Shown piece by piece: positions 654-62,304 of a stretch of 64,000 bases of DNA; position 1 is the stretch's first letter, and the number at the start of each line of letters is the position of its first letter. The stretch covers positions 29,078,001 through 29,142,000 of the forward strand of contig OZ231126.1 of assembly GCA_965153355.1 (NCBI GenBank), given 5' to 3'. Made by a program: the position numbers and the translations under genes. The notes beneath the pieces were generated by a model. That model ran no database searches and had not been told where the DNA came from. It was given only the letters and a program-made list of their open reading frames with translations. This DNA is from Flaccisagitta enflata (taxonomy: Eukaryota).

Positions 654-22182
<21,529 letters not shown>

Positions 22183-30200: not shown

Positions 30201-31783
30201 ATGAAGTACGCAGTCAAGCTGATAGTTTTGTCAGGTAAGCCTTTTGTTTGTCAGTAGTAAAGGATAGTTGTGAGCAATCCGGAGTAAACACCATTGAAAG
30301 CTTGCAAGGCTTTCATCCTTTGTATATTTGAGAATTCTGCTTCTGGCCTCCTTTTATGAGGGCAATGTTGTTTCAACTTTCATAAGTATCAGTACCTTGG
30401 TAGAGAATGCTGGCGGTCCCAGTTGGTTGTACCTCGATTCTTGCCTATAAGGGTATGGTTTTCTAATCAATATTGCTAGTGTCAGTACTTCCATCAGTAC
30501 ATTAGTAGTCTTTGATTATAACTTTTGTTAGATATTTTGTGTATGCTGAATGGTATAGGCCTGTCCAACCCTTTATTAATGAGGTATGCAGTCAAGCTGC
30601 TAGTTTTGTCAGGTAAGCCTTTTGTTTGTCAGTAGTAAAGGATAGTTGTGAGCAATCCGGAGTAAACACCATTGAAAGCTTGCAAGGAGAATTCTGGCCT
30701 CCTTTTTAGATGCGTCCTCGCATCTCTATAAGAGGGTCTGTCCGTCCGTCGGTCCGTCCGTCCGTCCGTCCGTCGGTCCGTCCGTCGCCGGTTGGTCCGT
30801 CGGTCGGTCCGTTACGCCTGTGCTAAAACCGCGATTTTCGGCTGTTTTTGACCACGATGAGATCCTACACTGAATCTACTGAGAGACAAACATGTTTTGA
30901 GAGCCTCCATTACTACTCTTGACGGACGTCTGTCTTTTTTACTGTCTGTTTATCCATAAATGTCACATGATCAATACATGCAGAAACATAGTCCGGACGC
31001 ATCGTTGCCAGTTCGGGCTTGTTATAAAGGCAACTTTCATGAGTTACGACTGAAATATGATCGACGTTTCCTGATAATTTGGTAGGTTGAAAAGGATGAC
31101 TGAATACTTTAGTTCGGCGGCTTTAATGACGATTGGGTTAGTTAGGAAAGATGATCTCAATCGCTTCTACAGTGTGACATCAGGGTGGATCATGAGGGAT
31201 ATATACAGTCTAGTGACGATCAGCTCATTTTGGCAACGTATCAATGAACAGGATTTCGTAAAAGGACAAAAGGAAGGAGTTTTGTGATGTTACTTAACTT
31301 ACCTCATTTCTCCTCCTCCCCCATCTCAATCCGATATTTACAAACAAACACGCCTACACTCTCCCGCTGCTCTCTCGCACACACAAAAAAATCACACGCC
31401 AGATTGACAGTTCTTCCCCGGAGAAGCTGTTCCCGTGCTCCGAATGTCCCAAATCCTTTTCCAGCAAAACTTATCTCAATCAACACGAGCTGGTGCACTC
31501 TGACGAGCGGAAACACGAGTGCACGTACTGCGAGAAACGATTCAAACAAAAGTCTCACTTGCAACAACACGTGCGCAAACACACGGGCGAGCGACCGTAC
31601 AAGTGCGATCTCCCCGGCTGTAATCGCGCGTTTCCCCAACTCTCCAATCTGAAACGACATCAAAAGAATCACACGACAGAAATGGAAAAAGCGCGACAAA
31701 ACCCTTATCAATGCTCCGTCTGTACCGGACTCTTCTCCAGCGAAAGAGAACTGAGAGAACACGACCTCGTCTGTCTCGTTTAA
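24265..31783 (+). CDS. AT-hook plus C2H2 zinc-finger transcription factor, lin-29/rotund/ZNF384-like
   Basis: Exon 24265-24384 carries the KKRGRPRK AT-hook and a GTAAGT donor (phase 0). It joins exon 31403-31783: CSECPKSFSSKTYLNQH...H, [50 protein letters not shown], plus a C2HC-type fourth finger. The YL.QH / SHLQQH / PGC..AF.QLSNL series matches the rotund/lin-29 finger array. Confidence 0.8.
24570..30142 (-). mobile_element. Non-autonomous LTR retroelement (no gag/pol recognisable)
   Basis: 385-bp direct repeats at 24570-24954 and 29758-30142 with two mismatches seen. 4-bp TSD ACTG at 24566-24569 and 30143-30146. On the - strand the LTRs run TG...TA, a PBS-like TGGTGC follows the 5' LTR by 2 nt, and a polypurine tract GAAAGGGGGGAGAAG precedes the 3' LTR. 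Confidence 0.92.
27475..28720 (-). CDS. FLYWCH-like zinc-finger protein carried inside the LTR element, frameshifted at a T9 run
   Basis: ORF 28720-27719 has a Pro/Ser-rich N-terminus and ends IVYKGY...WVCRHAKKTKCKG...ITFF. The expected HxH (CEHNHEP) continues in the frame of ORF 27918-27475 after the A9 run at 27723-27731. Confidence 0.65.
30356..30702 (+). repeat. Local tandem duplication; uninterrupted copy of the LTR target region
   Basis: Matches 24400-24569 joined to 30147-30350. Confidence 0.85.
30703..31023 (+). mobile_element. DINE-1/HINE-like element, GATGCGTCC subfamily
   Basis: TTTTTAGATGCGTCCTCGCATCT hairpin, (GTCC)n, inverted GGACGCATC, terminal CTTGTT; partial copy at about 41205-41262. 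Confidence 0.7.
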
Positions 31784-42343: not shown

Positions 42344-44623
42344 GAAACAAACGAAGAGATAAAGAATTAAAGAAAGAAAGGGAAAAAGCATTACAAGAAC
42401 AGTTCTATGAGGCTATCTTTCTTGTTCCTCACTGAAATTTCACACAGCATGGCAAAATCACTTACCAAATTCGGAGGCAACATTCAGCGTTTTGTTTTCT
42501 TTGTGAGGAAGCCATCTTTCCCCCAAAACCTTCCGCATTTCTTCATTGTGTTCGATTATGTGGCCCTCTTGGTGAGGCGGAAGGGGGAAAAATAGGGCGG
42601 GAAATGCCACAAAAATGGACACGGCATTAACATTCATTTTTTAACGGGACTGATGGTAATAGATCTCATCAGTTGCCATTGAAAATGACTCCATGTTGAG
42701 ATAAGAAACATTAACATCTGTCTACAAATTAACGTCACAACTTTGAAGCAATACATAAAAATGCCATCGACTTGACCAGGGCGTCGACTCAGGGCTGCCA
42801 ATGTCAATGAAATTGTTTTAAAGCCATTCGAGGTTCAAGGTTAAAGTCGACGATTGCAACTTACTTTTACGTTGTCCACGAAGAGGATGAACGACGGAAA
42901 AAGGTAAGTGAAAATGCAGTTTGGAGATTTGGCAGTCAAGAAGAGCGAAATCCGCGGACGGACCGACGGAAGCGCGAAAACTGTGACAATTCTTGTAGGA
43001 ACAGCTAATGCACTCTGTTCATAGCCAAATGGAAAAAGAAGAATGGAAAAAAAAAATGATCTTGGTACAGTAGATTTCATCAAGACTTGAGATGACGGGG
43101 GCAAGGATAATAGGAAGGAAATTGAAGCGAGGGGAATGATATTCAGAAAATGAACTAATAAAAAAATGATTTATTTCTTATGATGGTCAGTTGCCATGGA
43201 AACACATTTCCATATAAATATTTTGAGAGATTTTTTAAGAAATAGTGTTTAAAATCAAATTTGCTACAACATTCCCGCAATAGGGAGCCTATCTATGTTT
43301 GACAACCCCTAGCAACCGCCAGACGAGCGACATTCTTACAGTAAGTTGTAGCAAATTTAATTTTAAGAAATGCGCCTTATAAATTTTCTCAAAATATTGA
43401 TATTTTAGCGAAAATACATGAGAATGTGTTTCCATGGCAACCAGCTATCATTGGCAATAAAGCATCCTTATATTAGTTTATGTTTCAAATATCACTCCCC
43501 TAGCTTCAACCGTATTTCTACAATATTTGCCTCCTTTATCTCAAGTCTGAATGAGATCTACTGTATCATATCGAAATGGAAATGAATAAAAGGATTTAGA
43601 GAATAAATCATTTGAGCTCAGTTTCATTCTGTTAACATACAGTCCATTTTTGGGACATTTATTTCCTTTTATTTTATGTTTAAAACTCGTTGTGACTTGA
43701 TCAAAAAGGACAAGAATTCTCATACAGAATACCAAATACCTGGTTCTTGAGGTAGATTCTTAAGGCCGGTTGAGGTTGTAGTAACCGTAACGCTGTGGAG
43801 CAATTGACAGCGAATGAAGTGAATATATACTAAGGCTCAGACGCAGAATGGGGCGCTAATAGCGCAAATACGGTTAATGATTAGGAAACACTGTGACTGT
43901 GACACCTTTTATCTTCTAACGGATCTTACCTGAAGAGGTGATGTGAATGCGGCGAGGACAGAGGAGACCCCATGAAGTAACTGGAAACGCAAAAGATAAA
44001 GTATTAATCATATGTCTCTGAAACAAAAGTTAAAGTGAGAGTATGAAAAGTGACCGGGAATGGGTGTTACTGGCATTCTGAAAAAACGGAATACGCTCAA
44101 TTTCAACCATTTTTTGTTATTTATCTGTTTTGATCAATTTTTACATTTTTTTTCTCTTAGTTGTTAGTTGTTTCTGTGCCCTGTCATTAATGACGAATAA
44201 AGGATATTTTAAGCTGACAAACTTGATTTAGTGTTTTTATATCTATCGTATTTTTCAAAAAAAAAAAAAAAAAAAAAGATGAAAAAAAACACGAGAGTGA
44301 AAAAACCAAGCAAAAAGCTTATCAAGACTCGACAGGGCAATTTTCAGTTTCACTTACATGATAGAACGGGATTCATCAACGGCGACTATTTCAGACGGGA
44401 TTAATTCTTCTCCTTTAAATGATTTCAACGTTATTTCCTCCCTTCCTCTTTTAACTTCAGTCTGAAAGTGAGTGAAAGAAGGAATAGAAGTAACGCGAGG
44501 TTAAAACATCGGACCGACGGAGGGACAAAGTCTCTTGTAGAGTCGCGATTGCGGGACTAAAACTGCCAGTATTCTCTTTGCCAATTTGTCGGTCTGTGTA
44601 TATCCGTGTCTGTCTGTCTGTCC

Positions 44624-44663
<40 letters not shown>

Positions 44664-45419
44664 GAAAGGCTGACTTTCACCATTTTGAAATCTTTTCTTG
44701 GAGCCCTTGAATGTGGAAGAGAATGAAAATGATCCCGTTGAGTCGCGTAACTTTTCCGCGATTTGATGTCGAGTTTATTAGAGAACGGATATGTCGTCGT
44801 CTTCGTCGTCGTCGTTTTCGTCGTCGTCGTTGCCGTCGTCGTCGTCGTCGTCGTCGTGGTCTCGATGTTTGTTGTTTTTAATTTTCTTTCATCATTTACT
44901 TTCACCACTTTTGATGTATCTATCGAAGTTTTTTTTTGATAAGTCGATACATTCGCTAAAGATGACGTGATATTAGGATAAGACATGTCCATTGATGTAG
45001 ACATGCTTGAATCAAATGCCATTAATGCTGCTGATGACACGTTGGTAGGATATGATTTATTTGATGTAGTGTCTGTTGGAAAAGATACTGATACGTCATT
45101 CAGTGACATGCTCCTGGTCGATTCATTCGCTTCCCCTGCTGCTGCCATTGTTTTGATTCCTTGTTTTGATTTTACTTCAGTAGTCTCCGACTTGATTACT
45201 GCTGTTTTAGCCATTGTTTTGCCCCCCGCTGAAGAAGGTGGTGTTGATGCTGTATGAATAATTGTCCTTTTGTTGGTAATTAAGGATTTCCGCTTTGATT
45301 TCATCTTTGCGGAGGTTTCGCCGCCTGTCGGCAAAATGGCGTAGAAATGGGAAGTTGACGTGACCAACATCGATGATCGCCAACGCCATGGAGGGAGGGA
45401 AAATTGGTTACGCCACAGC

Positions 45420-45517
<98 letters not shown>

Positions 45518-48500
45518 GTGTCATGGGAACTGTTCCACATGTCAGTTAGAATCTTTTTGACGACTCATTTTGCATATGTCTTCAAGTTTCAATCATCGTC
45601 TTTAGTTTAGAGCTTGAAAAGACCTTCTTTGGGGTCGATCGATGAATCTAAAGAATCGAGAAGCAAATTCTTTCAAATGAAACAACAGCACCATGGTTTA
45701 TTCAGACCAAGTTGATCAACGTTGATGGCAAATACAAACAGGCTGATAGTCTACACTTTTTTAAATAAGAGACCAGTTTATAAGAGGCATGAGGCTGAGA
45801 TTTGCCAAAATTTTAAGGACAAAATAAGAGAATGCCCAGTATGAGATTCAATTTTGGAAGTTTCTTAAAAAAGATTTTTTGAGTCTCTTGATAAAACAAA
45901 CAACAATTATTCAACTTAAAAAAAAAAAATAGTATTTTTTCCCCAAAAAGATTTTTTCTTTTTTGATTTGGTTTGTCACTTTAAGCAAGATATTTGAAGT
46001 TATTTAGTAATGAACAAGTTTTTTACTAAAGACACATAGAACATTACTAAATAGTTAGATATTGACCTCAGATCCTAAATCTAAGTCCTTGTGAATTTTC
46101 ATATTTCTCTTTTATATGTGGCCGGTGCGAAGGTAGTAACGGCATGAGCTCTAGCTTGAACTAATCTGCTTGAATTTGTTCCTGAAAGATACCTTGGCAT
46201 GTACACATAACTCTGTTGATCTCATTGACCAAAATTTTGAACTTCTTAGGGGCCCCTAAGGGCCCCAAAAAGCCCTTAATGAGGATTTTTTTTTTTGAAA
46301 AAAAAGGGGGGTTCATTTGATAGGAAATTGCTTGATTCGCCTAGATCCAAAATCTTGTAATTTCACTTTTTTCAAAATAATTTAGAAAATTTTTGTGTCG
46401 GCCATATTTCAAAAGAAAGTTTAAAGATTCTCCTAGAATTTTTTTAGTTTGATATGGTTCAAACAAATGCTCATAACTTCTAAAGTATTTGAGCCAGAAC
46501 CTTGAAATTTGAAACATGCATTATTGAAAGCGCTGAGCAGGTCCATGCAAAAGATTGAGCTACTGACTGACCTAGGAAAATTTTCGAGTCTAAGTCTAAA
46601 ATAGTGTATTTATATTTTTTTTCGAAATTTTACATGTTGAAAAAAAAAAGAACAATTTAAGAGAATTTGAGCCTCAAAACAGCAAAAAACTGGAGAATAT
46701 CCAGGCTGAGTTGAAAAATGTTGTCTCTTATTAAAAAAAAGTGTAATCTAATGGCGCCTAACATAAGCATAAAAAGTGAAACTGTACATCTTCAAGAAAC
46801 GATTTCAAAGACCGCGATGTGGCTGGGATGAGCACTGCCTTGCTTTTTATCGACAAAACCACCGAGACTCAACAGACAAACGCTGCTTCCACAACGCATC
46901 TCGACAGTTTCGTGCAGGAGCAGTCCTCCATCGGCCCCGCCAAACTCGGTAGGCAGAGGCGCTTCGTCTCTCCATTCCGATTTGCCGACGTCGTAGATTT
47001 TGACTTTGTTGGAGATCTTCGATTCTGTGTCGGAGATCTTCCGATTGCCACCGACCAACATGATCTCGGTGTCCGTCGCGCGCGTGAGAGTATGGTTACT
47101 CAGCGGAGTTGACAGCCCCGTCTCGATTATTTCAGTCCACTCCAACGACTCGAGGTCGAGTACGAAGAAGTCGTTCAGGGGCTGATTGTTGATGCCTCCA
47201 TGGACGAAGAGTCTTTGGTCGAGGAGAGCGATGCCGAAGCCTGATCGAGGCGGGAGTCGCGCGCCGGACGTTGACACGCGAGTGAAGGAGATGTCTCTCG
47301 GGTCAAGACGGTAAATGTCGTTGGTAAAGTAGTACCTTGAAAGTTCCGACTTTTCCACGAAGTCTTCCTGCCTCAGTCTGTCCAATTGGCGCGTGAAACC
47401 CCCGATGAAGTGGACTTTTCCCTCAAAGGCGAATCCACGATGTTCGCGTCTCTCTGATGGAACTTCTCCCGTTGGATGAAGCCTTTGGAATTTCCCGGAA
47501 GTGGAGAGAGCGGAGAGGGCGTTGGTGAATTTGCCAATTCCGCTGTCACCGCCGAATAGGTACAGCTTTTGATTGCCACTTTGCCCTTCTACAACGGAGG
47601 CGGCGGCCATGGTTCCCGGATGAATGTCGCCCGTCACCTCCTTGACTTGCCATCTGCCAGCGATGTCTCCAAAGAGCTGACGCCTCAACGTCAGTGTGTG
47701 TACAGTGGATTTGGGAAGCGTGGAAAATCCACGATGCGGTTGCGCTTGACAGCCTCGTTGCTGGACCTGACTACCACCCCACACGATCAACTGATTGTTG
47801 AGGTTTTCAGCGATGAAGCCGATGCCACTTGGGAATCGAGGGTTTGACATTGATTGGAGATTCTTCCACTCTTTTTCGAGTAGGGGTGGAGATTCAAACA
47901 CATGCTGCTTGATAATCCTGATAGGTTGGCCTATAAGTGAGAAAAGAGACAGTCGCTCTCATTAGGTAATATTCAGGAAAACTAATGGGCATTATCCACA
48001 GGATTTTTGAAGAGGCTTAACGAACAGATAGACGGACGGACTGAGCAACTGCTAGACAAACCCACGCGAGGACGCCTCTATTCAGAGTAGCGACATCAAA
48101 CGGGCAGGAATCTAGGATGAAAATGTCTTAAAAAAAAAACAACAAAACGAAAAAACACCACTTCCAATTTATTTGGTCCTAAAAAGGGTGTAGAATAAGA
48201 ATATGATATTCCTTTTGGTCAAATACTGGCCGAAAGAATTAAAAACGGTTTTCTGTGCTAAAAAGTACTAATTATGCTTGAAAAACAGTGTTACTTAGGA
48301 TATTTTCATGATTTTTTTGCAGAATTGTTTAGTCGCAGTTCAGATTGATAATGTAATAAACTTTGAATGTATTGGGATATGCCTAAATGGCCAAAAAATG
48401 GCTTTACCCCGTGTTCAATCTCAAAGTGGGAAAAGTAAAAAGCTTACAATCCTAAACGCAACCAGTCAGTGATTTCATATTATTTTTCTCTTGTAGTGTT

Positions 48501-51500
48501 ATGTTTGACATTTTTTGTATAAAAATTTTATTGGTGTAGCCTTAATAGTTTGTCCACAACATCAATTTTAAGGTAAACAAGTATCTAAAGTTTGAGCTGA
48601 AAAACCCTCATTTCAATCATGATAGTTTTTCTTAATACTGCTCTAATTTCTAAACGGTTTGAGCTAAAAATACCAGATTGGTCTCAAATGAAGTATAATT
48701 TGAAAATGCTTACATTTGAGACCAATCTGGCACCTGTTATCAAGCCGTTTGAGAATTAAAGGCAAAATATTGAAAAACAGTGTCGATAAAAATATGCGTT
48801 TTTGAGCCTCAACTGTAAACACTTGTTTTACTTCAAATTGCTGTTCTGGACCAACCATTTAAGCTAGACCAATAAGATTTATACATAAAAAACGTCATAT
48901 ATACTAATACAAGACAAGAATGGTTTGAAATCACTGACCGGTTTTGTATAGGATTGTAGGCTTTTAACTTTTCTCACTTTGAGATTGAACACCCTGTAAA
49001 AAGCCAAAAATGGGGAAATAAGGCAAATTTAAAAAAAATTCACATATCAACCATTGGAAACCGTGTCCTGGGTAGAAAACATTGCAGATGTAAATTTTTT
49101 TTTCTTAATAGAACTACATGAGAAAGAAGTAAACAGGTCGCCCAAGGGCAATACATGGTCAGCGATATCCGTTGCCCTGCTTTGCATGGTTGAAAATTGG
49201 AATGAGAGGCAGGGCAGCGGCCCCGAAGGGGACGTAGTCCTGTAGAACACAGGGGACTTTCGTTCGTTCCTTTGTCCATCCATCCGTCCGCCCCCCCAGG
49301 CCCTCTAAAATCTGCCCTCTCAGGCCTGAAATCTACCCTCTCAGGCCTGAGAGGGCAGATTTTAGGCCTGAGAGGTCAGATTTCAGGCCTGAGAGGGCCT
49401 GGGGGGGACGAACGAACGGACAAACAAACGAACGAACGAAAGTCCCCTGTGTTCTACAGGACTACGTCCCCTTCGGGGCCGCTGCCCAAAAACGCAAAAC
49501 GGCATTTTGCAAATAAGATTCAATTTTACAAAAAATAGTATAAGGCCTCTTACGCATATTCCATATTCTAAAAAATACACTAGATTATCAATTTTTACCA
49601 GGACTATACAATTTTACAAAAAAAGAATAAAAAAGATGTTCAGAGCAATACTTTTTCAAGCTAAAATAGCATTTATAGCATTGATAAACGTTTCTAATTT
49701 TTTTTGGCCAGTATTTGACCAAAACAAATTTATAGCATACTCTGAATCTACACCCTTTTTAGACCCCCTGTGCAAGGTGTCTATCTTTTTTCTAAACCCT
49801 TAGAATTGAGATATTTTCAGTCTGGAAATCTGCCCGCAAACGTCAAAAGACCGACTAGAAGAAAAATAGTCAGACAGGGGACCGGGGGAACAGATCGATT
49901 GTTGTTCAATTACCTGTTGTTTTAAGCCGTTGTTGATGAGAGCCTGAAATGATAGGAAGGGAATAAAAAAATATCATTTTACCTATTAAGTTTGGGTTGA
50001 GTGGGGTAAAATGGGTCACCTGGGGTAAAATGGGTCACCCACTTTTTGTGAAAAACGTAAGGAAAATTTTGACGATTAGGATAATTAAAGAAGAATTATT
50101 GTGTCTAGTTTTTGATGAAAACAGAAATTTTGCAATGACTAATACTTGGGTTGAATTAAGTGGATGCCCCATTTTACCCCAGGTGACCTATTTTACCCCA
50201 CTACCCCCTACTGATTTGGAAAGATTTAAACTTCAACAGTGACCCATTTCTTTTCTTACTTTCTCTAAAGCTGTAGGGGTTGCGGATACAATCCCTGTAC
50301 TCGATGATCCATCTGGCCTCCAACATCTTTTCCACTTGCGCCAGTTCCTTGCATTTTACCTCTACTTCTGAAGGAGGTCTGTGATTCTTCGTCAGTTGGG
50401 CAACTGTCTCTTGGAGACGAGCTTTCTCGCGATCCCATTTCTTCAGGTCAGCCTTGAGTGATTTGAAGTTGGATTCTGTTTTCTCGATGATGCGTTGGAT
50501 TTGCTTGTGACTGCCGCTGAAGAACTCATCAACAATGGCATTGTACTCATTGACTGTGGAATTATCACTTGGATTTGCGCTGTCCAATGACTCTATGCCT
50601 ACTGTTCTACGTAGACCCTCCAAATTTCCGTGTATTTTCTGCTTGTGGGCTTTTATTTGTTCTTCATAAGCCTTGACGCACTGGGGAGGAAAGTTTTCGG
50701 TAAACTTCAATTCGAAATGCCTTGCGGAAATCCATAACAAATCCTGGGGTGTGCTTCAAGATCATCTGCAGCAGCTCGTTACTGGAGGGCAGGCGACCGT
50801 ACTTTTGCTGCAGTAGCTCCTCATACTGCCCAGCGTGGAAGATAAGATTCCGGCAGTACCGCAAGTATGCGTCAACACCATCTGAGTATTTTGAGCCTTT
50901 CAAAATTTCCGGGAAAACAAATGGCAGCTCCTTCCATTTTCCCTGTAACAACATGAAAAAGGAATCATTCAGTTCCTTCCTTATGGTTTTTCCTTTTTCG
51001 GAATCCCCTAGCTCAATGATAGCTTCATTGAGGGCTCCCAAACCTTGGATTTGTTGTTCAAAGCCGTCAAAGTAAGGGGCAGATTTGGCCTGATTAATAG
51101 TGATCCTATCTTCAGGACATGGTTGGGTCATGGTCCAGATGAGATTCTTGGCAAGTCCGTCAATCTCAGCGTTCAAAAGGTTTTCACGATCGTTGTTTCG
51201 CATTTTGTGAATGGTATCGTGATCATCTGAGCCCTTGAACAAGTGTTTGCCATTACCTAGCAGTTCAAACGTGACCAACGCGGTGGCATAGACGTCATGC
51301 GCTGCGTAATCATCGGCGGAAACATCTTTCAATCTTTTCCCGACACGGTTTGGATCTTGATAAAGCGGAGTCATGACACCGCCGGTGATTTTTACATGGT
51401 CATCTTCGTCCATCTGCTTCGCCGAGTCAAAGTCAGTAAACGTGATGGCGAAGCTTCCATCTCTCTTCTGTGGAACAACGATGATATTTTCTGGCTTGAT

Positions 51501-54059
51501 ATCACGATGGGAGATCATATTACTGACATCATCAGTTCTAGAATGGATGTATGTTACTCCATCAAAGATATCATGGATGATATCGTGAATATCTTTTGTA
51601 TGCAGCAGCCGCTGGCGCAATAGCTTCATCTCCTCTGTTGGTTGAATGATATCCCGTAGAGACCCCTCTCCTTTCTCTAAGAGGAGGGTGAATTCGCGGC
51701 TTGGACTGGATCTTTGATGCATTCCATGGACTTTGATGATGGAGGGGTGGTCGTGGAGACTTCGATGAATTTCAGCCTGTTCCTGTAATCTCCGGAGTGC
51801 CTCCCCATCCATTGCAGTGGTAATCTGATCACAAAGAATAAGAAAAATAAGATAACTTGTCATCCAAGGATCGCACATGGTCGGCGGTACTCATTGCCCT
51901 GCTTGGGGTGATTAATTGAGGCGGTGGAGCGGAAGCAATGCAACGATGTCTGGGAGAGCTAACGTAAAATTTCAAAGAACCTAAAAGAGGAAAACTAGAA
52001 ATCAGACTTGGGAGGGCTGATTTGAGGCCTCTCTGTCTTTCTGTCTCATTCGCTTTAAGGCGTCTGTACTCAATAGTCTGTCGAGGGGTGGATGTTTGGA
52101 AATTCACCTTTGTATCCTTCGTGACGTCGGTTCTTTATTCTCGCTACACTGCCTTGTTGTATCAGTTACATCAAACTGACAAATATTCTTGATAAACCCA
52201 CCTTTGCCACAGATTCGATTGGATTTCCCGCATCCTTAAGCATGGCCGGATACAAAGCGGTTGCAGAAGTAGAACCGATGCGATACTTGTCGATTCGGGA
52301 AGCTTCATTTCGATCAATGGAAACAGGGTACGACAAAGTGCGGGAGCGCGGGAGCATTGCTCCAAGGCAGCTTGCCACTTTGTAGGCAGAAGAGAGAGGG
52401 GAAAATAGGAAGAGGGGAAAAAAGTATTAGCAAAAAAAGCAGAAAAGAAAAAAAAGGTTCCATAAAGAGGCATAAAACCAAAAAAGTTCTGAGTCAGGAT
52501 AGTTTATTTGCCTTAAAAGTATTGAAAGTATTTGTTTTTGACAGTTTACTAATATACAACAAAAAAAACATGTATGAATTTTGTAAGCAGGAACCAGATG
52601 AAAAATTTTGCTCGTAGGCAGCAAAATAATTTGTCGGACCCTGAATGGAAACATCGAATAAAGAAAAATCGACGCCGGTTTTTATCAGTTTGGAATCTGA
52701 ACTTACGCGACGAAATGGCAGGGTAAAATGGGCCATGCTCGGATCAGATTGGCTGTAAACGTGTTAAGGTGTAGTATTGGGTCTGAAAAGGGAAAATTTT
52801 TCACGCCAATTACAGCATTTATTACTGACTAAATGCAGTCAAAAGGATATAAGCTTGAAGCGAAGCGAAGAGCGTAATTGTGTTGTGTCACTTAATGACA
52901 TTCGACTGGTTTCGAAACTAAAGAAGCCGCAAAATTCTGCTGGCATGGCGAAAGGAGGTCGGGCTTAATCATTAATTGTTTTCTTCAATTCGCATGCTTC
53001 ACGACTCTAAAAGCCTCCTATTGGTCGATCAGTCGGTTTGACCGAAAGTCTTCTCAAGACAATTTCGTGCATAAAATCATTTCTTTGGTCATTATAGTCG
53101 TGTGTCAACTTGAGAGTCATATGGTGAGCAGTTTTGTTATAGATTCTCAAAAGACATGTTTTTCACGACGTTTTATTTAATGGAAAACTAGTCATTGAGG
53201 GTTCACGAGGCCCTCTTCCAAACTCAGTTTGGAAATAGTGAGGGATATTGATCCACTTGTAATGTAATTTTTAGGTCATTTTCGTGATTTCTGAGCTCAT
53301 TTTAGTCATAGAGGTCATTTTAAATATTAATGTCATTTCAGTCAATTTAGTCAAGTATGTCAATTGATGATCTTGAATAGAAGATTTTAGACATTGGCAA
53401 TTGCAAAAAAAGATGAGAATAAAAAAGGTTTTCTTAAATTACTTGCTTGAATCGATTTTTTCTGTAATTCTTTTTTGTAAAACCATGATGCTTGCCTATT
53501 TCTTTTATTCATTCATTCATTCATTCATTCGTTCATTCATTCATTCATTCATTCATTCATTCATTCATTCATTCATTCATTCATTCATTCATTCATCCAT
53601 TCATTCATTCATCCATCAGCATTAAATTAGCTTGAGATTTTACCCAATCTACAGATGATTGACGGAAAAAGGGTATCGCGGACCTGCAATCTCTTCAACC
53701 CGGCTTTTTTTTCGGACACGGGCTCGACTTTTTCTCGATACAGTTTTATTATTGGCTCAGAGTCTGTTCGGTCGAAATACCACACTGCAGACAGCAAAGA
53801 CCGATATCATTTTGTTTTTGCTTCAATATGAAAAAAAATTCCGTCTACGCTAAGAACAAACTTTTGTCAAAAGACATTCCTCACACATTTGCTTACCGTC
53901 GTGCAAGCGGTCGTATTGATATTGCATGAAGCCAGGACGAATAGAGTTTGACGCCGGTTGATCCATCCCAAGATCAAGTCGCCAGAGTCGTTCTCTTTAG
54001 TGCCAGTGCCGATGTTTTTGGAACTTGCTCGCCATTGTAAAGTAACCAAATAGAATTCG
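36534..54059 (-). CDS. Dipeptidyl peptidase 4 family (S9B) protein, predicted catalytically inactive (DPP6/DPP10-like); 5' exons not found
   Basis: Phase-compatible exons: 54059-53897 (YLVTLQW...WINRRQT...C...C), 45418-~44663, 44461-44358 (EIVAVDE), 43980-43930 (YF...P...HLFS), ~43792-43740, 43014-42865 (CISC...C), 42567-42466 (IEHN), 40404-40326 (LRPPLF...KYPVLIY), 40070-39903, 39639-39476 (LPYVD..KVAVLGCGFQG), 38310-38200 (LLIYGTID), 38039-37966, 36725-36534 (HLYQRVELFLEKCF, stop). The GWSYGG nucleophile motif is replaced by GCGFQG. Confidence 0.85.
36999..37611. mobile_element. TA-flanked MITE nested in a HINE-like element
   Basis: TIR CCACGCGTAT.AAAAAAAAAAGACGCAC. The uninterrupted host copy at about 40861-41070 shows the empty GGTCATTAAAGTCAT site. 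Confidence 0.8.
43095..43535. mobile_element. Degenerate palindromic (foldback) MITE
   Basis: The two halves are imperfect reverse complements (GTTGCCATGGAAACACATT / AATGTGTTTCCATGGCAAC; TTTGCTACAAC / GTTGTAGCAAA). Confidence 0.65.
45754..46743. mobile_element. TA-flanked MITE (relatives at 13281-13678 and 19358-19900)
   Basis: TIR CACTTTTTT..ATAAGAGAC at both ends; shared subterminal GAGGCTGA/CAGCC motifs. Confidence 0.75.
46792..47930 (-). CDS. Kelch-repeat beta-propeller (terminal exon of the kinase-KEN-Kelch gene)
   Basis: 369-aa ORF with repeated GG motifs (LIVWGG, LYLFGG, VHFIGG, LFVHGG, IMLVGG, LSLGG) and ending at TGA. It lacks an initiator ATG at its 5' end and has an in-frame phase-1 TTATAG acceptor ending at 47931. 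Confidence 0.88.
48101..49836. mobile_element. Long-TIR element with CAAA flanks, containing a nested TA-flanked MITE (48407-48996) and a family-B element (49130-49491)
   Basis: CGGGCAG ... CTGCCCG termini and inverted TAAAAAGGGTGTAGA motifs. Inner TIR GTGTTCAATCTCAAAGTG. Confidence 0.7.
49914..49943 (-). CDS. 30-nt linker micro-exon of the kinase-KEN-Kelch gene
   Basis: TTTCAG acceptor and GTAATT donor; phase 1 to phase 1; keeps the frame between 50260 and 47930. Confidence 0.6.
50000..50205. mobile_element. Small MITE
   Basis: GTGGGGTAAAATGGGTCACCTGGGGTAAAATGGG is inverted at 50166-50202. Confidence 0.7.
50260..52357 (-). CDS. IRE1/RNase L-like kinase plus KEN ribonuclease domain plus coiled coil (5' part of the kinase-KEN-Kelch gene)
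   Basis: Exon 52357-52202 (IGSTSATALY...VAK) splices in phase 0 to 51824. The kinase has HRDIKPEN and TDFD. KEN-like KYSDGVDAYLRYCRNLIFH (compare IRE1 Y...LLRAMRNKKHH) follows. The frame changes at about 50681-50740, then a coiled-coil-like segment runs to a GTAAGA donor at 50259. Confidence 0.8.

Positions 54060-56519: not shown

Positions 56520-62304
<5,785 letters not shown>

Follow-up and report, generated by a model that had tools for sequence, protein, structure and literature searches.

To our knowledge, only two of the regulated ribonucleases that combine a kinase fold with a KEN nuclease domain, IRE1 and RNase L, have been characterised in depth. The first acts in the unfolded-protein response, and the second performs antiviral RNA decay in jawed vertebrates. 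A preliminary description of the locus treated here took these two systems as its frame of reference, which is too narrow, since the text of a 2023 survey places homologues of the RNase (PF06479), most of them with a kinase domain, in ten eukaryotic clades (PMC10400998). The same text reports RNase L only in jawed vertebrates (PMC10400998). Lineage-specific expansions of KEN domains are described for monocots and Oikopleura in the text of PMC3710099, those of Oikopleura as KEN without kinase.

We have analysed a stretch of 64,000 nucleotides of the assembly of Flaccisagitta enflata, called the window in the following. Judged by its sequence, the locus encodes a protein of the RNase L/IRE1 type, from a family that is diverged and expanded and has no name as yet. 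We lean, although only slightly, towards one explanation of the whole: a diverged RNase L/IRE1-type gene with a candidate Kelch exon downstream, whose copy in the window is broken by an 11-base deletion.

The family resembles IRE1 in having the kinase fold directly before the KEN domain, and no solved structure matches the family profile better than IRE1; the family's Tyr, Arg-Asn and His correspond in yeast Ire1 to Y1043, R1056, N1057 and H1061. Unlike IRE1, it has neither lumenal sensor nor membrane segment, DFD stands in place of DFG, Gly-rich loop and APE are lacking, an extra three-helix region follows the KEN domain, and a long branch separates the two in the tree. In the window as in the relatives, the start codon precedes the kinase N-lobe by about 20 residues, which agrees with the absence of an N-terminal sensor in the preliminary description. 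The likeness to RNase L consists of a cytosolic kinase fold plus KEN, a non-canonical C-lobe and the DFD, for RNase L has the same uncommon Gly-to-Asp change in DFG according to the text of PMC4718504. In contrast to RNase L, no ORF of the gene gives an Ank match and the 52 residues of exon 1 are already kinase N-lobe; ankyrin repeats are thus lacking and would have no space, which leaves no evident 2-5A sensor. The PK-KEN clades of the survey share kinase and RNase with the family, which is set apart from them, as far as the survey's text goes, by its low PF06479 score (PMC10400998).

The kinase-KEN family comprises, at E <= 1e-30, no fewer than 30 cluster representatives, which come from marine contigs, and all nine family clusters that were looked up come from ENA contigs of 0.65-3.9 kb. 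In the tree, in which 16 of the 26 family rows were used, the branch between the family and five reference kinase-KEN proteins has support 100/100. Its best E value for the Pfam RNase model is 1.4e-4, which falls short of the Pfam cut-off and of the survey's threshold of 1e-5, so the family may have been missed by the survey; it is diverged enough to escape Pfam-based surveys, and such proteins may be under-counted. A lineage-specific expansion would fit a role in conflict or defence.

Gene layout and the frame break in exon 2

The features of the locus are collected in Table 1. There are three minus-strand ORFs, at 50664-51890 (408 aa), 50201-50755 (184 aa) and 46792-47958 (388 aa). Exon 1 aligns with residues 9-52 of the protein record P0008 (54.5% identity, E 4e-9) and with the N-termini of 12 relatives, all equally short. 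Over the whole window, neither an Rfam family nor a tRNA was found.

Table 1. Features of the kinase-KEN locus and its surroundings (positions in the window)
Feature	Position	Strand	Description
Exon 1	52202..52357	-	ATG at 52357; 52 residues ending ..ESVAK; phase-0 donor GT 52201-52200
Exon 1 content	VAK lysine at 52202-52204	-	N-lobe strands, conserved RIDKYR; read from translation
Intron 1	51825..52201	-	377 nt, GT..AG; AG at 51826-51825
Exon 2	50260..51824	-	Kinase-like, KEN-like nuclease (predicted) and helical region; frame broken in window copy
Pfam Pkinase match	51069..51791	-	E 6.2e-28; 98.4 bits against a cut-off of 31.7
Kinase motifs	HRD 51501-51509; DFD 51426-51434	-	Read from sequence
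KEN-like (HEPN) nuclease domain (predicted)	50660..51068	-	Tyr 50886-50888, Arg-Asn 50847-50852, His 50835-50837
Frame break	between 50734 and 50733	-	11 bases absent that other DNA from this species or population carries
Helical C-terminal region	50260..50659	-	Ends at phase-1 donor; coiled coil of the preliminary description
Exon 2 donor	50260/50259	-	A|GTAAGA, phase 1; GT at 50259-50258
Gap from exon 2 to Kelch exon (intron if fused)	47931..50259	-	Three inverted-repeat MITE-like elements, high-copy depth
MITE-like inverted-repeat elements	48403-49000, 49212-49487, 50000-50202		Within the gap between exon 2 and Kelch exon
Putative 30-nt micro-exon	49914..49943	-	AG 49945-49944, GT 49913-49912; within ORF 49906-50034
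Kelch exon or gene	46792..47930	-	Stop at 46792-46794; pyrimidine-rich acceptor AG 47932-47931; first ATG 47850-47848

The preliminary description had joined these ORFs through GT-AG junctions, with exon 2 as a single frame. The ORFs and the splice signals are indeed where it placed them, but exon 2 is not one open frame: its two ORFs, which lie in different frames, share 92 nt, so the proposed junctions are phase-compatible only by a silent change of frame, and the 11-base break had been overlooked. P0003, which is 98% identical, is collinear with exon 2 in two tblastn pieces, between which the frame changes at about 50727-50743. The 11 absent bases take with them a stretch of a conserved KEN helix (..HFYW.. 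in the relatives). They are carried by all three other DNA contig sets, in one contig each and at full depth (140.2/140.2, 6.9/6.9 and 202.1/202.1 for the form containing them), and the site is intact in the four near-identical protein records that span it (P0003, P0154, P0155 and P0156). With the 11 bases restored, exon 2 measures 1576 nt (525 codons plus one base) and ends in phase 1, so it fits the Kelch acceptor.

Because other DNA from this species or population has intact copies, we regard the break in the window as a null allele or else as an error of the assembly, not as a feature of the gene. A decaying pseudogene, in which the deletion is real in Flaccisagitta enflata and no working protein is made, seems to us quite unlikely. 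The position of the break inside a conserved KEN helix would suit such decay, as would a near-identical record broken elsewhere (P0153, whose frame is lost after ..GGVM), an in-frame TGA in another gene of the window and the 7 residue-changing differences among the 11 listed for exon 2. That count is, however, small and partial, the catalytic residues are retained in the window copy, and the three DNA sets and four site-spanning records are all intact, with open frames of 476-562 aa. In any case, the raw reads need to be checked before the window copy is annotated as an intact protein of 950 aa.

The 30-nt exon at 49943-49914, which formed part of the preliminary gene model, has neither homology nor read support. 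We have dropped it as unsupported, not as disproved; it adjoins an inverted-repeat element, and the frame is kept if it is skipped. The predicted fused protein would have 956 aa without this micro-exon and 966 aa with it.

Kinase fold and KEN-like nuclease domain

All the motifs that had been read in the preliminary description (the VAK lysine, HRDIKPEN, DFD and KY..LRYCRNLIFH) are found in the sequence. The DFD is present in 17/17 family rows and HRD in 15 of the 17. While the VAK Lys and HRD are kept, APE has become YxDP and the GxGxxG of the Gly-rich loop is lacking. The kinase domain is thus, going by these motifs, probably a nucleotide-binding pseudokinase. The nearest matches outside the family (P0039-P0053, of which eight were scanned) are proteins with multiple kinase domains and are uninformative.

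The region after the kinase is, by prediction, a diverged KEN (HEPN) ribonuclease domain, as the preliminary description had proposed from its Tyr, Arg-Asn and His. It begins at about ORF residue 275, directly after the end of the Pkinase match at residue 274. When the profile of the 26-sequence family is searched against the PDB, the 15 distinct sequences at the top of the list are all IRE1 (best E 9.4e-26), in an alignment that extends from the kinase through the whole nuclease and pairs the Tyr, Arg-Asn and His with those of yeast Ire1, whose active-site roles are covered in the text of PMC3149027. Compared by hhalign with five reference proteins that carry Pkinase plus Ribonuc_2-5A, with domains checked, the family gives Prob 99.4 and E 1.6e-21 over 204 columns, C-lobe included; restricted to the KEN region, the comparison gives Prob 84.4 and E 7.1e-6, with 124 columns spanning the nuclease domain of the references. 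W315, Y331, R340, R343, N344 and H348 (P0003 numbering) are invariant in all 26 sequences. The Rx4-6H motif with a polar residue after the Arg, by which HEPN domains are defined in the text of PMC3710099, is found in 26/26 as R343-N344-x3-H348 together with Y331, and in the window at 50835-50888.

The Pfam model Ribonuc_2-5A (PF06479), which had been suggested for checking the domain, stays below its curated cut-off of 23.3 bits in the window piece (12.7 bits, E 0.14), P0020 (21.3) and P0008 (15.8), this value being an operational threshold and not a structural feature; the profile comparison shows homology to bona fide KEN domains. Ribonuc_2-5A is nevertheless the third most frequent Pfam family, matching 10 of the 26 members at E <= 1. 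In the Atlas feature search, the two nearest clusters (0.99) carry it in 98% and 90% of their members. The Atlas structure search with the P0003 model returns it in five of the top seven rows, the other two carrying Ank_2; residues 1-404 are aligned there, with TM 0.52-0.59 by query and 0.74-0.76 by the short targets. AlphaFold models of the KEN-like region are all-helical (pLDDT 83). Smaller queries of the PDB yield less: a 9-sequence profile finds IRE1 at E 0.005-0.012, in the only 13 rows that pass the kinase C-lobe; a 3-sequence KEN-only HMM finds only ribosome-recycling factor at E about 1; and the post-kinase region of the window, as a single sequence, gives one chance match and no IRE1 or RNase L chain. 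RNase L is absent from the best 60 PDB rows of three profile or sequence searches.

A KEN-derived domain might also have become a helical scaffold or an RNA-binding module that does not cut RNA, leaving the protein to act through its kinase fold, a reading that we find very unlikely. It would account for the scores under the Pfam cut-off and for the altered distance between Tyr and Arg-Asn (between Tyr and Asn there is one residue fewer than in Ire1), and some HEPN domains are non-catalytic according to the text of PMC3710099. But Tyr, Arg, Asn and His are invariant in 26/26 sequences that average 42% identity in the domain, which is hard to explain without catalysis, and the kinase to which the activity would then fall itself lacks Gly-rich loop, DFG and APE.

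Helical region, Kelch propeller and proposed mechanism

What had been called a coiled coil after the KEN domain appears in the AlphaFold monomer model of P0003 as three helices of about 30 residues (443-470, 472-501 and 506-536). In its best heptad window, 7 of the 8 a/d positions are hydrophobic. The region matches DUF7491 below the cut-off (E 2e-5), and our literature search on DUF7491 found nothing. Among 15 family ORFs that reach the end of this region, 14 continue with Ser or Gly (followed in seven by Lys) and then run into unrelated tails; the counterpart in the window is the donor A|GTAAGA read through. A conserved phase-1 intron follows the helical region and implies at least one more coding exon.

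The best candidate for this further exon is the Kelch exon 2.3 kb downstream, with about even odds by our reading of the sequence. The preliminary description was right about a Kelch propeller ORF downstream on the same strand, whereas the fusion that it proposed is seen in no transcript, annotated protein or second locus. The ORF matches PF24681 (E 3.6e-46; 157.7 bits against a cut-off of 50) as a six-blade KLHDC2-like propeller, and KLHDC2 is its best natural solved match in the PDB (E 7.5e-15). An Atlas structure search with P0172, which is 98% identical to the Kelch ORF, gives TM 0.84 to KLHDC1/2 clusters. The likeness to KLHDC2, which reads C-terminal degrons, and to KLHDC1 is in the propeller fold, while the sequence identity is low; a link to a nuclease would be new.

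The two parts may instead be two genes, a possibility that we take seriously even if we rate it somewhat below an even chance. The kinase-KEN-helical gene would then end in a short terminal exon within 50259-47960, and the Kelch ORF would be a separate KLHDC-like gene of 352 aa with its ATG at 47850. One candidate terminal piece starts at 49943, where the micro-exon read past its donor gives 12 residues and then a stop, but such a short exon has no homology support. P0178 starts at this first ATG and the Met of P0173 is three residues from it, although the ORF callers behind both records begin at Met by construction. The propeller is complete from the ATG, the Pfam match starting 17 residues after the Met and KLHDC2 aligning from query residue 85-86. 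On the other hand, the frame is open for 26 codons from the acceptor to this ATG, with a phase that matches the conserved exon 2 donor on the same strand, and the single listed variant in between (47911) is synonymous; the open frame is weak evidence, because 36 open codons precede 16-22% of all ATGs in the window. Against a separate Kelch gene, furthermore, the only canonical AATAAA signals between the ORFs (48532 and 48173) fall within high-copy repeats, and some 100-250 nt would leave very little room for a promoter.

The search for a fused protein speaks for two genes, with negatives that are weak: no relative of the Kelch ORF longer than 662 aa and no kinase-family member longer than 714 aa were found, and a word-index search for longer relatives gave only two unrelated kinases for the kinase-KEN ORF and none for the Kelch ORF. 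As to a second locus, none of 286 pattern matches in JGI metagenome contigs and none of 119 in viral contigs was confirmed. A kinase-KEN-Kelch protein was not found in the text of the literature searched either. The Kelch ORF has only two close relatives (P0172, 98%; P0173, 30%) versus at least 30 kinase-KEN representatives, and the two exons also differ in their pattern of change: the listed haplotype differences, 18 out of more than 100, are non-synonymous to synonymous at 7:4 in exon 2 and 2:5 in the Kelch exon.

Each member of the family has, by our reading, a kinase fold (a probable nucleotide-binding pseudokinase), a predicted KEN (HEPN) endoribonuclease domain and a three-helix region of about 150 residues. 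If the Kelch exon is joined to the gene, its propeller would be the part that senses a signal or binds a target. If the protein works like IRE1 and RNase L, its kinase folds would associate with one another and so pair two KEN domains, whose His/Tyr pair would cleave RNA without a metal while the Arg-Asn holds the phosphate. A bolder version, which we consider unlikely, sees an RNase L-like family of innate-immune ribonucleases with the sensor at the C-terminus. The phase-1 intron would let the sensor exons vary, the Kelch domain would sense a parasite peptide or protein, or a stress signal, and drive pseudokinase-KEN assembly and RNA decay, and null alleles would segregate. We think that a separate, expanded kinase-KEN family in a marine animal, with catalytic residues kept, a DFD pseudokinase and no N-terminal sensor, would show another way of wiring a KEN nuclease and could be an invertebrate counterpart of RNase L. 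Were the Kelch join true, the nuclease would be controlled by a protein- or peptide-binding propeller.

In about 6% of one poly-A RNA run labelled with the same species (X12), 29 reads gave partial matches only and none on an exon, so they are uninformative on expression and splicing; they fell between exon 2 and the Kelch exon, at 47877-48087 and in repeat bins at 48932-49564. A very high-copy repeat, as judged by depth, also lies in intron 1, near 51850-51890.

The domain behind the kinase

The region behind the kinase, read as an IRE1/RNase L-like nuclease in the preliminary description, is judged to be of the KEN type: the single-sequence tests are weak, whereas the family-level profile tests are clear. 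The post-kinase piece of the window has Ribonuc_2-5A as its sole Pfam match (12.7 bits, with a cut-off of 23.3), and a PDB search with this piece alone returned no IRE1 or RNase L chain. An exhaustive sequence search returned 3050 representatives at E <= 1e-3, mostly ordinary kinases, of which 69 passed 1e-10 and 30 passed 1e-30; 26 relatives drawn from this search formed the family set. Ribonuc_2-5A was matched in 10 of them at E <= 1 (best 1.4e-4), as the third commonest family behind two kinase models. When an HMM of the 26 sequences was run against solved structures, IRE1 occupied places 1-15 (yeast 2rio, E 9.4e-26; human, about 4e-23), with CDPK and DAPK kinases ranked below. The alignment of the HMM with IRE1 spans the whole nuclease domain and pairs the family Tyr, Arg-Asn and His with their yeast Ire1 counterparts; there, according to PMC3149027, Tyr/His are experimentally defined as the general acid/base pair and Arg-Asn as phosphate ligands.

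Besides, in a single-sequence search the five matches aligned beyond query residue 370 all carry Pkinase plus Ribonuc_2-5A (Pfam, E 4e-21 to 3e-40), whereas both control matches with an earlier alignment stop lack the pair. Profile-profile comparison of the family with those five kinase-KEN proteins gave Prob 99.4 and E 1.6e-21 over 204 columns; with three kinase-less family sequences, it gave Prob 84.4 and E 7.1e-6 over 124 columns, which fall on the reference nuclease domain. Run against the PDB, an HMM built from the same three KEN-only sequences returned no KEN chain. For P0003, a protein record 98% identical to the window copy, the nearest ESM Atlas clusters by features (0.99) are kinase plus Ribonuc_2-5A, and so are five of the seven top structure neighbours, the other two having ankyrin repeats (residues 1-404 aligned). 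W315, Y331, R340, R343, N344 and H348 (P0003 numbering) are invariant in all 26 sequences, at a mean domain identity of 42%, and the R-N-x3-H string is compatible with the HEPN motif Rx4-6H, as given in PMC3710099. The AlphaFold predictions are confident, with pLDDT values of 83.4 for the KEN domain of the related record P0038 and 82.2 for P0003, with blocks >90 through kinase and KEN. We conclude that the post-kinase region represents a diverged KEN domain, and that in intact copies it is very probably catalytic.

Kinase fold and place among kinase-KEN proteins

The kinase features described previously, namely the VAK lysine, HRD and DFD for DFG, were seen again in the kinase part. HRD is found in 15 of 17 family rows and DFD in all 17, while APE is changed to Y-x-D-P and the Gly-rich loop is absent. 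In DFD, the kinase fold of the family shares with RNase L an uncommon substitution of Gly by Asp. PMC4718504 describes RNase L as a pseudokinase without activity, which binds ATP and acts as the scaffold on which homodimers form; by analogy, we infer a nucleotide-binding pseudokinase in the family.

That the locus belongs to a diverged, expanded pseudokinase-KEN family is solid. By analogy, the core would work as a kinase-KEN protein like RNase L and IRE1, and it is a member of neither: the family lacks the ankyrin 2-5A sensor of the first and the lumenal and membrane part of the second. In a tree of 16 of the 26 family sequences (10 shorter fragments were left out), the family and five reference kinase-KEN proteins are split with 100/100 support by a long branch. 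Ten clades of kinase-RNase homologues beyond IRE1/RNase L (PMC10400998) and KEN expansions in Oikopleura and monocots (PMC3710099) are already known; therefore, the family is a variant within the known kinase-RNase proteins. In the text of the literature searched, we found neither a kinase-KEN-helical nor a kinase-KEN-Kelch protein described.

In P0074 (789 aa), a distant match of the exhaustive search, Pkinase and Ribonuc_2-5A (E 4.2e-21) are followed by an F-box (665-696): another kinase-KEN protein with a C-terminal module of protein-recognition or ubiquitin-ligase type.

Exons and the broken reading frame

The genome around the locus is animal-type; its neighbours include a Sushi-repeat receptor tyrosine phosphatase and ORFs with MBT repeats and with C2H2 zinc fingers, and the window DNA is present in marine metagenome runs too.

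Features of the locus and its surroundings (positions within the window)
Feature	Position	Strand	Remarks
Exon 1	52357-52202	-	52 residues, C-terminal VAK; GT directly after
Exon 2	51824-50260	-	acceptor AG directly ahead
Kinase ORF	50664-51890	-	408 aa; Pfam Pkinase E 6.2e-28
Helical-region ORF	50201-50755	-	184 aa; coiled-coil-type Pfam matches below cut-off only, best DUF7491 E 2.2e-5
Kelch ORF	46792-47958	-	388 aa; Pfam PF24681 Kelch propeller E 3.6e-46
Low-complexity ORF	44501-45520	-	long, Ser/Thr-rich; just downstream of Kelch ORF, between (TC)n and (GA)n microsatellites
Inverted-repeat, MITE-like elements	48403-49000, 49212-49487, 50000-50202		fill much of exon 2-Kelch gap
MBT-repeat ORF	8625-9347	+	E 9.1e-25
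C2H2 zinc-finger ORF	31298-31783	+	E about 1e-20
Receptor-type tyrosine phosphatase gene	57924-62304	+	Sushi and two Y_phosphatase domains
In-frame TGA in phosphatase gene	60837-60839	+	second broken reading frame in window

The proposed exon 1 is real: it is 54.5% identical to the N-terminus of the related record P0008 and aligns with 12 relatives, with ..RIDKYR..TSLHPATLKD.G....VAK in common. The N-termini of these 12 are all short, which leaves the protein without an N-terminal sensor, a signal peptide region or ankyrin repeats; a lack of the last two had already been noted.

The single reading frame assumed for exon 2 is not found, the kinase and helical ORFs overlapping by 92 nt in different frames; the window copy of the gene is frame-broken. 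P0003 (562 aa, from an ENA contig) is uninterrupted across the break site (..GFVINFYWISARHF..), which is intact in all four spanning members of its six-member 90% cluster. All three DNA contig sets aligned to the window, two with the species label and one marine metagenome, have 11 extra bases behind 50733, at full depth and in one contig per set. With these bases, exon 2 has 1576 nt and a phase-1 end; their absence removes part of a family-conserved helix (..H.YW.AK..). One contig set, X1, has 8 other letter differences from the window in 1.7 kb, so the contigs are not simply the same haplotype. The gap may mark a true null allele or be a fault of the assembly. In the near-identical P0153, a fifth cluster member, the frame is lost elsewhere, after ..GGVM, with an early stop; this may mean that the sampled population often carries broken variants, or that the short contigs are misassembled. 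Among the listed differences between the window and the other DNA sets, a small, partial sample with 84 more beyond it, 7 of 11 in exon 2 (50260-51824) are residue-changing, but the Kelch exon (46795-47930) has just 2 such changes among 7.

The TGA of the phosphatase gene occupies the place where a ..FW.M.W.. type motif would be expected to continue; it may be a nonsense allele or a fault of the assembly.

Helical region and the Kelch propeller

The coiled coil suggested earlier is modelled in P0003 as three helices (443-470, 472-501 and 506-536; pLDDT mostly 85-95), each about 30 residues long. Its best 28-residue window is hydrophobic at 7 of 8 heptad a/d positions, and a Pro-Pro turn lies between two of the helices. 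Conservation within the family is lowest in this region (mean identity 30%, versus 44% for the kinase).

Fifteen family ORFs extend to the end of this region. In 14 of them Ser or Gly comes next, in 7 of these 14 with Lys after it, and the tails beyond are unrelated and 1 to about 60 residues long. The window counterpart is read-through of the donor A|GTAAGA. As GT at codon positions 2-3 gives Ser (AGT) or Gly (GGT), a conserved phase-1 intron is taken, from their protein sequences, to be present in the other members as well, and every member would then need at least one more exon. A further C-terminal exon is solidly indicated by this intron.

We think that the chances of this exon being the Kelch propeller, which is complete and KLHDC2-like, are about even. 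Apart from a low-complexity ORF, the next one of appreciable size on the strand is the Kelch ORF; its exon has a pyrimidine-rich acceptor of matching phase, and the three inverted-repeat elements make up about half of the 2.3-kb gap. The 26 codons from the acceptor to the first ATG are open in frame, with a synonymous change as the sole listed variant, but 16-22% of window ATGs have an equally long upstream open frame, and the related record P0173 (30% identical) starts with Met three residues from the Kelch ATG. Moreover, word-index searches with the kinase-KEN and Kelch ORFs found no fused protein, and only two close Kelch relatives, compared with the 30 or more kinase-KEN representatives of the exhaustive search. 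No exon is touched by the 29 partly placed reads from ~6% of the poly-A RNA run X12, and no supporting evidence was obtained for the 30-nt micro-exon (49943-49914). The preliminary description is confirmed in part as observation and supported in part as interpretation; fusion to the Kelch exon, dimerisation and a possible immune role are what we infer.

Contig depth at the MITE-like elements and at about 51850-51890 is thousands to millions of times the exon depth, so these are very high-copy repeats of the genome. Contigs linking 49492 to about 51853 are numerous, a sign that one and the same element may lie on either side of exon 2.
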